Source: an uncultured virus (IMG/VR IMGVR_UViG_3300013121_000030) (Duplodnaviria > Heunggongvirae > Uroviricota > Caudoviricetes). From it: a DNA stretch of 64,000 bases. The stretch is from IMG/VR virus record IMGVR_UViG_3300013121_000030, positions 1-64,000 of that record; one strand, given 5' to 3'. Within the stretch, counting starts at the first letter, position 1, and each line of letters opens with the position of its first letter. This document shows positions 5,924 through 15,175 of this stretch, piece by piece. A program made the translations under genes and the position numbers. A model generated the notes under the pieces. The model made no database searches, was not told the origin of the DNA, and saw only the letters and a program-made list of their open reading frames with translations.

Positions 5924-6799
5924 ATGCTCCCACAGTCCCCCAATGACATCGAAGTGGTCCTCTATCATGCGTCCTGTACAGACGGATTCGGAGCGGCATG
6001 GGCTGCTTGGGAAAGGCTTGGGGACCGGGCAGTCTACATCCCCATGGCTTACCACGACCCTCTTCCCGAGATTGTTCGTGGGAAGAATGTGGCGGTCGTC
6101 GACTTCCACTGTGAGAAGCAGGACCAGCACGCTGAACTCCTTCACCTTGCTCGGTCTGTGATCATCCTGGACCATCACAGCTCTGCTCAAAAGAAGCTGC
6201 ATGCGGATCCTCATGCAGTCTTCGACATGAACAAGTCTGGAGCTGTCCTCGCCTGGGAATACTTCCACCCAGGCAAGCCTCTCCCTGTTCTCCTCTCCTA
6301 CGTCCAGGATGTGGACCTGCACGCCAAGAAGATCGCCAACTCGTCCGCGTTCGTGGTCGCCCTCTATGAGACAATCCCCATGGACTTCCAGGCGTGGCAC
6401 CAGATCCACGTGGAGATGGCCCACCGGGAGTGGGAGCTGATTTCGCGGGGTCGGGCCATCCAATCCCTGATGTCAAACCTCGTCGACCAGGCTGTGCAAG
6501 GGGCTGTGCTCATCACCTTCGAGGGAGTTCGGATGTGGTGCGTGAACCACACCAGCAGGTTCTACAGCTCCGTTGGCAATGCACTGTGTGAGCGCATTGT
6601 GGAGGGAGAAGAGACTCCTGTGGGAGTGGGGATGGTTTGGTGGTGGGACGCCTCCAAGCGGAGGTTCAAGGTTTCTCTCCGCTCGAAATCCCTCGTCATC
6701 AATCACATCGCCTCCAAATATGGGGGAGGCGGTCATGATTTTGCAGCCTCCTTCTACTTGGAAGACATTACTTCCTTTTTTGCCCGGGGGTCATGTTGA
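5924..6799 (+). CDS. DHH/DHHA1 family phosphoesterase
   Basis: YHASCTDG, VVDF, ILDHH, SLRS and GGGGHDFAASF motifs. Confidence 0.88.
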   Translation: MLPQSPNDIEVVLYHASCTDGFGAAWAAWERLGDRAVYIPMAYHDPLPEIVRGKNVAVVDFHCEKQDQHAELLHLARSVIILDHHSSAQKKLHADPHAVFDMNKSGAVLAWEYFHPGKPLPVLLSYVQDVDLHAKKIANSSAFVVALYETIPMDFQAWHQIHVEMAHREWELISRGRAIQSLMSNLVDQAVQGAVLITFEGVRMWCVNHTSRFYSSVGNALCERIVEGEETPVGVGMVWWWDASKRRFKVSLRSKSLVINHIASKYGGGGHDFAASFYLEDITSFFARGSC

Positions 6800-7811
6800 A
6801 CATGCCGCTCAGGCGATTTATCACAAGGTGCTGAGTTTCTTTGGTGGACTTGGCGAGAATGTCCACTACATTCTCGCCGTTTCTATTGGCGACCCGAAAG
6901 TAAATTCGTACCCCTCCATGGGTGTTGTTTCGCACTTCAGCGAGCCCGCCGGCCAAAATCTTAATGTTGCTGAAGAGCCCCTGCTTCATGTTTTCCACAA
7001 GGCGATCAGCGGCTTTCTGAGCCAGCGGATTTTTCCCCATGGATTCTGCGATTTCCACCATAGTTGGATCCTGGTTAATTGAGGAGACAACTTTGGTTGG
7101 CTTTCCTGAAGCCAACCCTGGGAGAGCAACTTTGGACTCCATCCCTCCTGAAGCTTCCACAAGTGTGGAAGCCACAAAGGCCTCTTGAGCCAGAGGCGAA
7201 GAGTGCTCATACGAAATTGAGTTGGGCTGCTTGACTGACTTCCCAAGGACTCGACCACTCGCCGGGTCCAGATAGACCCTGACCCTTCCTTCGGAGAAAT
7301 TCTGGTACGACTTTACAGTGTCATCCACAACGCGCTGCACGCGACCTGGAAGCGAGAGGTCGTAGACCACCCCTGCGACCCCCTTGGCAACGTCAGAGAC
7401 GACTTCACAAACGGTGCAGGTGCCCTGGGGATCTGCAATCACCAATGGACTCGACTGTGCATACTGGTAGGGATGCAAGTCCTCAGGGTTGGTGGGGAAG
7501 CTCAGGTCTGGCGATGCCCATTGCGCTGACTCGATCCAAAGGATCCGCGACCCAAAGAGGACAGCCTCCCCAAACACCGCATCCTCGCCACCAGCATAGC
7601 GCTCTGTAATTTCCCACGGACCCTGAGAAAGAGGAGCCCCAAAAGGACTTGAGAGGACTTCCTGGCGAGTGTGGATGCTGAATCTGGCCGACCCAAGAGA
7701 ATCCATCACATAGGCTTCTGTGCGCTCCGATGGAGCAAGAGGCCCCCCCTCGGAAAGGCCACCACCACATCCTGCAAGCAGAAGTCCAACACAAGCCATC
7801 CAGCGCTTCAT
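6768..7811 (-). CDS. lipoprotein: Rhs-associated core plus C-terminal RelE/ParE-like toxin domain
   Basis: MKRWMACVGLLLAGC lipobox; core motifs DSLGSAR, SPFG, GSR..WASPD, PYQYAQSSPLVIADPQG; C-terminal LAEVR..GGVRIYF...ILAKSTKETQ; ATG overlaps the upstream stop (ATGA) with GGAG SD. Confidence 0.75.
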   Translation of the reverse strand: MKRWMACVGLLLAGCGGGLSEGGPLAPSERTEAYVMDSLGSARFSIHTRQEVLSSPFGAPLSQGPWEITERYAGGEDAVFGEAVLFGSRILWIESAQWASPDLSFPTNPEDLHPYQYAQSSPLVIADPQGTCTVCEVVSDVAKGVAGVVYDLSLPGRVQRVVDDTVKSYQNFSEGRVRVYLDPASGRVLGKSVKQPNSISYEHSSPLAQEAFVASTLVEASGGMESKVALPGLASGKPTKVVSSINQDPTMVEIAESMGKNPLAQKAADRLVENMKQGLFSNIKILAGGLAEVRNNTHGGVRIYFRVANRNGENVVDILAKSTKETQHLVINRLSGMFNMTPGQKRK

Positions 7812-14900: not shown

Positions 14901-15175
14901 AGTACAAACGGAACCCCAGGTTGAAGAACCCGAACCTCACGCTCCCCCTCCAATCTGAAGATGCTTGGATTAGATGCCCGAACCTCCGTGGAGGTCACCT
15001 CCACAGGGGATTGAGTGAAACACCCATCGCATTCCTCCTGACACACCTGGAGGACACAGCGAGATCCTTCACCACAATCCGCATCTCCCCAGCAGAGATT
15101 GCCGTCGCGGGTTTCCCCACATGAAACTCCAGCCACCACACCCAGAGCCACCAAGAAATGTTGTCTCGAATACAT
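11930..15175 (-). CDS. TcA-like lipoprotein (coiled-coil plus TcB-binding-like C-terminal domain)
   Basis: MYSRQHFLVALGVVAGVSC lipobox; Cys-rich CWGDADC motif; long helical region; C-terminal RLESISV...W...N...LVDVEI pattern like the TcA TcB-binding domain; 3 nt from the TcB-like gene. Confidence 0.6.
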   Translation of the reverse strand: MYSRQHFLVALGVVAGVSCGETRDGNLCWGDADCGEGSRCVLQVCQEECDGCFTQSPVEVTSTEVRASNPSIFRLEGEREVRVLQPGVPFVLPTEFQGSVWTPAGLVLVNRPQMGSLDGAWTGTSPVGLRHAVTLFIQEGQILLSSPLWDRPLLGKGTFEGDLLDVSFAHTLTLPALNQEVTYQAAIKVSREGSEWVGTLEESVSGWVKGLSREGPIRLVGSAPPQSPLDPYPFEMLPESGPKGLPSFWGEKENPQCSGLGWKYGKDASCANCVYSKYECDADSASTCAENILSTVHLMDKVVRGESGDLGWEDCREGKCSDLDALQCAERLLVRAAGFQVDAATIAPALDREVEAQVWLGMDAQNQSAFAFEFFPVAAPARERTLLEDLIHTNQKILQRSIYLPVAMTPTMERMALADLSARVDYAHLEPSTWGEVWQWAHMASFVWPSITVGVPLSPSDPSALRAGPVPLFRGPEDIESGDSNFEVALGYALSKAEVLARLQDEAWGAFLEAETAQFNIDATRYQIESSYDAKLRDLCGISADGHTPDYEHCGDSLGTVASLSLGVQAARHRIQKAEAAAAANLLSIQIEEDRIASLGDLEDSISNQIDALNRQAIRAVDTFGKKRAAATLAAAERECLRAHQLGSLQREATDGQCKVQLQTELMQGYSVFGWGVPDPAAALLIHKNCDTQLKSISAEVDIKCDSMRDQADLSSTLEELDRLEKSEFMVVSQAIDSILRKSKHAEDVINSTATVRNMTNQIVWHAADVEDAKVEEKVASAAWLASYMEALHLMVERETTLQALVSNNPSDPHSQARFLWDQWVLGRNAREQFELARKAAAQVLRTLEYEIGWELPSLWGKLEEIRRASDLETFLSCLDTVHTDYLLTHGQDQSYSTIISLRRDVWGIANPIDGPSGTISEVQQFRNRLASPLYWKDGILEVPMVLSGGDLEIFSPYLCDDRLESISVQFVGDHLGDLEAEVLVTRSGPGVLIRCNDQEPTPVLFPEWKILVQAGVNAPGTENSGFADWPTQGTQWTFMWDPSSPPNSDMDWQGLVDVEITLHRHAKTINQIGSYTPDCG

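Follow-up and report, generated by a model that had tools for sequence, protein, structure and literature searches.

We have analyzed a three-gene operon carried by an uncultured jumbo phage (IMG/VR record IMGVR_UViG_3300013121_000030). The operon is probably, with a probability that we put at roughly 0.6, a phage-carried compact member of an exported lineage of toxin complex (Tc, or ABC-type) toxin translocases, for which we have found no description. The evidence consists of the gene structure and domains of the operon, the TcA-like fold of a model of its first protein, the conservation of the gene triad and of its export signals, and purifying selection. The virus record is 234,244 bp long and is estimated to be ~90% complete; the window analyzed here is its first 64 kb, and its phage identity is evident from the presence of terminase, portal, endolysin and other phage families (PHROGs). 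An original prediction, made from the letters of the window, had described three tightly coupled minus-strand genes with a 3-nt gap and an ATGA overlap between them. The open reading frames (ORFs) and the junction sequences agree: the A/B junction reads TGA-ctc-ATG (3-nt gap) and the B/C junction is an ATGA overlap. The three genes are the following.

11930..15175, minus strand: A-like gene, 1081 amino acids (aa), ATG at 15175 (ORF list)
7808..11926, minus strand: B-like gene, 1372 aa, a Sec-signal protein with SpvB, FG-GAP propeller, TcdB_toxin_midN and RHS shell
6768..7811, minus strand: C-like gene, 347 aa, a lipoprotein with Rhs-associated core and cargo

A Logan contig from another assembly spans the B/C junction with 99.8% identity over 4361 nt and without gaps, and contigs from a separate study span both junctions with 29 substitutions and 0 indels. 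A frameshift or assembly error at the B/C junction is ruled out by these contigs, and bacterial contamination of the contig is ruled out by the presence of the cassette in the contig of a related jumbo phage. The 29 between-strain substitutions in the operon comprise 19 synonymous and 10 non-synonymous changes, which indicates purifying selection. The G+C content of the operon (0.55-0.57) is the same as that of the remaining window. Metagenomes of wastewater, aquatic, marine-plankton and activated-sludge origin, from 4 or more studies, contain DNA that is nearly identical. Contigs from the RNA libraries of one study match patches of all three genes and both junctions; since DNA carry-over is possible in these libraries, transcription is not claimed. 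A scan for promoters and terminators gave sites no more numerous than in shuffled sequence. The public gene calls begin at internal start codons, giving 968 aa for A (from residue 114) and 1283 aa for B. These late starts drop the signal peptides and conserved N-terminal modules, and thus hide the export signals from automated surveys.

Fold and family of the A-like protein

The TcA-like C-terminus originally proposed for the 1081-aa lipoprotein is borne out by fold, in both Foldseek and VIA-align, and not by sequence. An AlphaFold2 model built from an 85-sequence family alignment has a predicted local distance difference test score (pLDDT) of 76 and a predicted template modelling score (pTM) of 0.66; a model built from the single sequence (pLDDT 36) was useless and was set aside. 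In a Foldseek search of the PDB with the family-based model, ranks 1 to 23 are all TcA proteins from several genera (XptA1, TcdA1, TcdA4, TcaA-TcaB and YenA2), with E-values ranging from 3.6e-12 to 7.3e-4; the next matches, which are unrelated, start at 7e-3. VIA-align superimposes residues 459-1068 of the model on residues 2007-2516 of TcdA1 with Z ~15, a segment that comprises the channel and the TcB-binding domain, and the match reaches the C-terminus in both proteins. Residues 892-1068 match the isolated TcB-binding domain of TcdA1 (6l7i_A) with a VIA-align Z of 10.0 and a root-mean-square deviation (rmsd) of 4.0 Å over 142 residues, and Foldseek scores the A-like model against the same structure with E 7.3e-4 and a target-normalised template modelling (TM) score of 0.55. 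YenA2 (9c4k_B) matches residues 460-1069 with Z 13.0 (VIA-align). In the ESM Atlas, the model is matched at TM 0.68 by a cluster from Myxococcota, 13% of whose members carry PF18276. These matches support the view that the modelled A-like fold is that of a TcA channel plus TcB-binding domain. Features of the A-like protein are listed below.

15119..15175, minus strand: signal peptide and lipobox, residues 1-19, with Cys19 in ..VAGVSC, in accord with the lipobox rule
14507..14839, minus strand: avidin-like 8-stranded beta-barrel, residues 113-223 (VIA-align Z 10.8)
12503..13801, minus strand: channel-like long helical hairpins, residues 459-891 (VIA-align to TcdA1)
11972..12502, minus strand: TcB-binding-domain-like C-terminal domain, residues 892-1068 (fold match to 6l7i_A)

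The tip of the long hairpin (residues ~667-690) lies between two helices of ~100 residues each and is hydrophobic and rich in Gly and Ala, a property found family-wide; its pLDDT in the model is low. Such a tip would look like the membrane-inserting tip of a channel. Residues 1-458 consist of a Cys-rich module, the avidin-like barrel and ~200 aa of helices. The barrel aligns to bradavidin and other avidins with Z 10.8 and an rmsd of 2.2 Å over 95 residues (VIA-align). No match to a receptor-binding domain was listed for residues 1-458, parts that VIA-align barely probed. The large helical shell and the neuraminidase-like domain of TcA are lacking, and the protein has less than half the length of TcA (1081 vs ~2500 aa).

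An exhaustive HMMER search yielded an A-like family of 162 representatives, mostly 1050-1400 aa long and conserved over residues 460-1081. Non-phage members, one named source of which is a metagenome-assembled genome of Polyangia, are matched with E-values down to 1e-97, and the family profile finds matches in 95 of 401 sampled Myxococcota genomes. The sole PDB match of the family profiles is to an Ig-like N-terminal module that is found in other members. The A-like protein has no match among 50,697 GenBank phage records, and a search of BFVD with its model returned no bacteriophage protein of the same fold. Pattern scans of IMG/VR with the A-like protein, the C-like protein and an alignment of C proteins found no relatives; a metagenome scan with the C alignment found nothing, and word-index searches with the A-like and C-like proteins returned only the window's own proteins.

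Two matches in BFVD were recorded separately. Protein p58 of Myxococcus phage Mx8 aligns to ~125 columns of the A-like model (TM 0.41), and the match possibly corresponds to the avidin-like domain. The only strong viral fold match is A0A481Z1I0, an uncharacterised protein of 1032 aa from Mimivirus LCMiAC02 (Foldseek E 2.3e-10), which could be a TcA-like protein in a eukaryotic-virus bin or bacterial contamination. The other BFVD matches were to SMC/Rad50-type coiled coils and were judged spurious.

The B-like and C-like proteins

Four Pfam families match the B-like protein above their cut-offs: SpvB (29.8 bits, cut-off 22), FG-GAP_3 (29.0, cut-off 26.9), TcdB_toxin_midN (28.1, cut-off 24.8) and RHS_repeat (102, cut-off 22). 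They follow one another in that order, at residues 48-106, 347-403, 525-631, and 829-856 with others; TcdB_toxin_midC was not detected by Pfam. The SpvB-like, FG-GAP and YD-repeat content that had been predicted for the 1372-aa protein is therefore present, and at the level of sequence a TcB-like identity is supported. [quoted passage not shown] From residue 3 onward the B-like protein is collinear with P0010, a single-chain fusion of B and C (hereafter BC) of 2029 aa, with 22% identity over 1557 columns (E 5e-44). Features of the B-like and C-like proteins are as follows.

11870..11926, minus strand: Sec signal peptide of the B-like protein, residues 1-19, ending ..ISFA/EV
7767..7811, minus strand: signal peptide and lipobox of the C-like protein, residues 1-15, MKRW...LLAGC, with Cys15
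7422..7712, minus strand: Rhs-associated core of the C-like protein, residues ~34-130 (TIGR03696), with SPD and DPQG motifs before a predicted self-cleavage site
6771..7421, minus strand: cargo, residues 131-347 of the C-like protein (217 residues; size and isoelectric point computed)
6813-7034, minus strand: putative RelE/ParE (Gp49/HigB-like) tail, residues ~260-333 of the C-like protein (TIGR02683)

The core of the C-like protein aligns to residues 1722-1762 of P0010. When BC relatives are aligned, the conserved HxDHxGS with which their core starts falls at the exact point where the B-like protein ends and the mature C-like protein begins. Thus B and C together correspond to one BC fusion that has been cut just before the core and whose second piece has gained a lipoprotein signal. 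Pfam finds no RHS-repeat match in the C-like protein, which contains core and cargo alone. The second known C-like member, P0246, encoded in contig L011, is 35% identical to it and shares its core motifs; the lipobox of P0246 is LTAGC, and its cargo is homologous to that of the phage protein. The TIGR03696 (Rhs_assc_core) scores are 24.7 bits in the C-like protein and 26.3 in P0246, and the cut-off is 32.5. The SPD and DPQG motifs are 25 residues apart and invariant in P0246, and the C-like protein is predicted to carry a two-Asp self-cleaving core with a DPxG-type motif.

In a predicted complex of B residues 560-1372 with C residues 16-135, B strand 1364-1372 pairs with C residues 31-36. The interaction prediction score from aligned errors (ipSAE) is 0.79, whereas the highest of three controls scored 0.00; 93% or more of the contacts are common to the runs, and the partners have a pLDDT of 72 or higher. 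Of 80 solved complexes, 58 reached the ipSAE mark, as did 2 of 110 mismatched pairs. Since single-chain Rhs shells have already been solved, this result indicates likeness to such shells rather than binding.

The cargo of the C-like protein has a mass of 23.3 kDa and an isoelectric point (pI) of 9.46, and that of P0246 has 22.8 kDa and pI 9.73. Both conform to the size and charge rules published for translocation by Tc toxins, which are 20-35 kDa and a pI of at least 8 (PMC6868009). The tail of the phage cargo matches TIGR02683 with E 6.8e-8 and 32.8 bits, under the cut-off of 62.85, and the homologous tail of P0246 matches PF05973 (Gp49) with E 0.003, also below the curated cut-off. Two independent weak matches to one superfamily make a RelE/ParE assignment reasonable but unproven. 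The cargo has no PDB sequence match, and in an ESM Atlas feature search its scores were at most 0.80, in the range of noise. Overall, the Rhs core and toxin tip foreseen for the 347-aa lipoprotein find support in the core alignment, the motifs and the cargo, at scores that are sub-threshold.

Export signals and conservation of the triad

Export signals were judged by rule and by inspection, the lipobox with a scripted PROSITE-like rule. On this basis all three proteins carry the export or lipobox signal expected of them. In its strict form the lipobox rule also holds for 50 of 85 members of the A-like family, many of the others being N-terminally truncated. The N-terminus of the B-like protein has a basic residue, 11 hydrophobic residues and the ISFA/EV site, and can be aligned to that of P0010; signal peptides are also present on the B proteins of L011 and of L002, a locus in a related jumbo phage. 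Residues A13, G14 and C15 are invariant in both known C-like members. Among the aligned relatives of the B-like protein, ~17 of 26 have signal peptides by eye and 11 by the scripted rule, a count made on the homologues of P0002 and not on the copies that neighbour A-like genes. Since BC relatives mostly bear signals and the signal of P0010 is aligned, export of BC proteins is normal for the clade. Judged from these sequences, the export signals are a trait of the bacterial lineage rather than a phage novelty.

The gene neighbourhood check showed that the full triad, with both lipoboxes and the Sec signal, recurs in L011. The A-like protein of this contig has 1050 aa (34% identical), its B protein has 1291 aa and a Sec signal, and P0246 has 328 aa; the intergenic gaps are 6 and 7 nt. 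In L002 an A-like gene (36% identical) precedes a B gene that has a Sec signal and of which the start is present. None of the outcomes that had been set beforehand as contrary to the original prediction (absence of signals, of a TcA-like fold, or of co-occurrence of the triad) was found.

The genes upstream of the cassette in L011 and L002 are different ones, in the opposite orientation, and thus the conserved unit is A-B-C alone. In L002 the cassette stands beside PcfJ-like and peptide deformylase genes and a gene for a 1768-aa protein. That protein is 55-87% identical to sequence at 152-159 kb of the present 234-kb virus record (G000), and its homologue in G000 is ~140 kb away from the cassette. 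The cassette therefore occupies different genome neighbourhoods in L002 and G000, which indicates that it is mobile among these phages.

Among bacterial loci with usable flanks, the A-like family is linked to SpvB/FG-GAP/RHS (BC) genes in 18 of 27. In 9 of 11 such loci a short-type A gene (~1200-1500 aa) has a BC gene a few kb away at most, usually directly downstream, and in 9 of 16 a long-type A gene (~1800-2300 aa) lies directly downstream of a BC gene. What sets the phage type apart is that A is compact, that the split falls just ahead of the core, and that there is a second lipid anchor.

Several further observations concern these bacterial loci. The long form, found at Myxococcota loci L033, L034, L036, L044, L049, L050, L052, L053 and L056, has only the C-terminal ~700 positions in common with the short form, and its order is BC-then-A, the reverse of that of the short form. 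One copy of the long A of L033 (2147 aa) was scanned and has no Pfam family except a weak EB module. L045 has tandem long A-like genes (1817 and 1812 aa) at 2250-13110, and no BC gene within the 20 kb fetched. At L003 the B gene is truly fragmented. At L009 the BC gene is followed by paralogous small ORFs at 19612-19992 (126 aa; overlapping the BC stop) and 20515-20877 (120 aa), which look like an array of immunity genes.

In the window, the gene 3' of the C-like gene is a convergent DHH/DHHA1 gene (5894-6799, plus strand). Upstream of the operon, on its strand, are a 126-aa ORF (15264-15644) and an AAA_5 ATPase of a phage-common family (15452-16753), which overlap by ~190 nt in different frames.

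Mechanism, alternatives and known systems

What we infer of the complex, namely its oligomeric state, site of assembly, surface exposure, target cell and cargo activity, would be as follows. The A-like protein would be exported and lipidated and would form a TcA-like oligomeric funnel and channel, with long hairpins, a hydrophobic tip and a TcB-binding domain on top, working without the large shell and receptor-binding domains of TcA. The B-like protein would be exported by Sec and would build most of the RHS cocoon, its FG-GAP propeller docking on A as in Tc toxins. B and C would meet after export, the C-like protein giving the last shell strand, the Rhs core plug, the aspartyl self-cleavage site and the basic 23-kDa cargo. 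It would thereby close the cocoon and tether its closed end to a membrane, the lipid being ~15 residues from the first shell strand. The unfolded basic cargo would thread the channel across the membrane of another cell and would then probably attack translation, or DNA gyrase. In this geometry the channel tip would point away from the membrane that bears the cocoon; a surface-exposed, contact-dependent device would fit this better than a purely periplasmic one, although this is speculation. As a whole, the functional interpretation of the operon is plausible, and the original proposal that the toxin assembles in the periplasm and could act on neighbouring cells or competing infections stays conjectural.

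Several points weigh against this interpretation. The A-like protein has no Pfam (E <= 0.1), NCBIfam or PDB sequence match, and 7 of its relatives have no Pfam family at E <= 0.01. The family profiles match no TcA chain among PDB sequences, and in a Pfam scan PF18276 is touched by 2 of 41 family C-terminal domains, with E >= 0.03. Sequence methods are thus blind to the relationship, so that the TcA likeness rests on the model and on genomic context, and depends on a structure that is itself predicted. The missing shell and receptor-binding domains are those that shield the channel and trigger injection in TcA. The Rhs-core and RelE-like assignments of the C-like protein both fall under curated cut-offs. 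We know of no precedent for a separate Sec-exported chain that brings core and cargo to a cocoon, and the entry of the cargo into the cocoon is left unexplained. No immunity gene adjoins the operon, the convergent orientation of the DHH/DHHA1 neighbour leaving no co-directional candidate, and no HI1420-type antitoxin (TIGR02684) was found in the 234-kb record. No host was identified; the terminase is nearest to that of an uncultured phage of 485 kb (53%) and next to that of a Tunturiibacter phage (30%).

Alternatively, the same machine might be aimed at eukaryotic grazers (protists), and host lysis by the phage would release or expose it. This possibility, which we regard as unlikely, differs from the preferred reading in the target cell alone, and the confidences in the two overlap. 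Canonical Tc toxins are freed by phage-like lysis cassettes, and all Tc toxins characterised to our knowledge act on eukaryotic cells. The lack of an adjacent immunity gene and of an HI1420-type antitoxin in the genome would fit such a target, as would the origin of the sequences in wastewater, activated-sludge and aquatic metagenomes, where grazing is intense. However, the small ORF that overlaps the BC stop in L009 and its paralogue have the usual layout of interbacterial immunity, and the A-like protein is without the receptor-binding domains of TcA.

Somewhat less probable still is that the A-like protein is not a pore. B and C would then form an exported, lipid-anchored YD-shell toxin, with A as an envelope scaffold or adhesin, and delivery would follow another route such as outer-membrane lipoprotein exchange. 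Myxococcota do have YD-shell toxins with Sec and signal peptidase II (SPII) signals and no known delivery machine (PMC13018210). The extra N-terminal modules of A (Cys-rich and avidin-like), the low confidence of the modelled hairpin tip, and the A-like genes that have no BC gene nearby are also compatible with a scaffold. Yet the fold match spans both channel and TcB-binding domain and ends at the C-terminus as in TcA, the hydrophobic tip is found across the family, A adjoins BC in most loci, and the cargo conforms to the size and charge rules for passage through a channel.

The operon might also be a decaying passenger, a captured bacterial single-chain BC gene broken just before the core, but this is already disfavoured and we consider it very improbable. 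The close bacterial relatives are indeed all single chains of ~2000 aa, and the B gene of one bacterial locus (L003) really is fragmented. Against decay, L011 has the same split at ~35% identity, and each C gene has its own start codon and a canonical lipobox; several assemblies are free of indels, synonymous changes outnumber non-synonymous ones 19 to 10, and the G+C content is that of the rest of the phage. Least probable of all is a virion or tail-associated RHS structure for host recognition: a few GenBank phage records do hold RHS-repeat ORFs (21-23% identity) and structural genes are present in the window, but all three proteins have a Sec or lipoprotein signal, out of keeping with the cytoplasmic assembly of virions, and the cassette is distant from the structural module and has a different genome position in a related phage.

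If the preferred reading, that of an exported Tc-type translocase, is extended beyond this operon, a bolder and distinctly tentative proposal may be made, to which we give less than even odds. Sec-exported, lipid-anchored mini-Tc injectors may be a distinct class, widespread in Myxococcota and captured by jumbo phages, in which an envelope-tethered, shell-less TcA-like channel delivers cocoon-packed toxins from cell to cell. It might be the missing delivery machine of exported YD-shell toxins, and, where a phage encodes it, a weapon with which an infected cell is armed or avenged. Tc toxins as known are very large weapons without signals, set free by lysis and directed against eukaryotic cells. 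An A protein cut down to channel and docking domain would define a minimal translocase and would prompt one to ask what stands in for the pH-triggered shell. The export of all parts, two of them lipid-anchored, implies assembly outside the cytoplasm, and a cocoon closed by a separate core-plus-cargo chain would, if real, be a new route for loading RHS shells. About a quarter of the Myxococcota sampled have this A-like family beside BC fusions, which would connect a large number of "orphan" exported YD-shell toxins with a candidate device for their delivery. Carriage by a jumbo phage that is found in wastewater and aquatic metagenomes of several studies adds to phage cargo a new type, which may have effects on ecology.

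Among known systems, the Tc toxins of Photorhabdus, Xenorhabdus and Yersinia (a TcA pentamer with TcB and TcC) have the same three-gene A-B-C order. As in these toxins, the phage A ends, by fold, in a channel and TcB-binding domain; B shares with TcB its SpvB, FG-GAP propeller, TcdB_toxin_midN and RHS repeats; and at the end of the last protein are an Rhs core, a motif for self-cleavage and a cargo that is variable, basic and 20-35 kDa in mass. Unlike TcA (~2500 aa), the phage A has 1081 aa, is without shell, neuraminidase-like and receptor-binding domains, and is undetectable by sequence, the TcA signatures (Pfam VRP1, Neuraminidase-like and TcA_TcB_BD) being absent. Canonical Tc toxins are signal-less and released by lysis via the type 10 secretion system, whereas in the phage B has a Sec signal and the other two proteins are lipoproteins. 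TcC has an RHS-repeat half-shell ahead of its core and toxin, whereas here the B/C boundary lies just before the core rather than mid-shell and C gives almost no shell; the cargo tail is RelE/ParE-like in place of an ADP-ribosyltransferase, and the operon is phage-encoded. Because of its length, its missing shell and sequence signatures, its B/C boundary and its signals, the operon is not a canonical Tc member.

YenA2 (~1300 residues), part of the split A of YenTc from Yersinia entomophaga, has the same channel and TcB-binding domain. Its shell comes from the partner YenA1 and chitinases and it has no signal or lipid anchor, whereas the phage gene has no adjoining A1-like partner. T6SS Rhs effectors (Tse15, RhsA) likewise have an RHS shell that encapsulates a toxin, with a core at the C-terminus and self-cleavage; they differ in their PAAR/VgrG-linked N-termini and cytoplasmic loading, and have no SpvB, propeller, signal peptides or A partner. 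The myxobacterial SitA lipoprotein toxins resemble the phage C in having a lipoprotein signal followed by a polymorphic C-terminal toxin, and are not known to have an Rhs core, cocoon or TcA-like partner.

In the literature we found no paper in which exported BC fusions have a TcA-like lipoprotein as partner, and none on a phage-borne Tc cassette, and a survey of Tc loci mentions neither Myxococcota nor lipoproteins (PMC7861908). The closest published idea is that of exported teneurin-like YD-shell lipoproteins without a delivery machine (PMC13018210). These teneurin-like proteins (TLPs) are exported YD-shell polymorphic toxins, common in Myxococcota and often with Sec/SPII signals, whose delivery machinery is described as not evident (PMC13018210). 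They differ from the phage system in having a single-chain FN-plug/NHL/YD-shell superfold and no TcA-like partner. The two-gene relatives of the operon, pairs of A-like protein and BC fusion, are widespread in Myxococcota and apparently undescribed. They share with the phage operon the same A family, a common lipobox and an adjacent SpvB/FG-GAP/TcdB_midN/RHS protein of a mostly Sec-signal family, and they differ from it in that BC is one chain of ~2000 aa, the long A form (~2100 aa) follows BC instead of preceding it, and some loci have immunity-like small ORFs.

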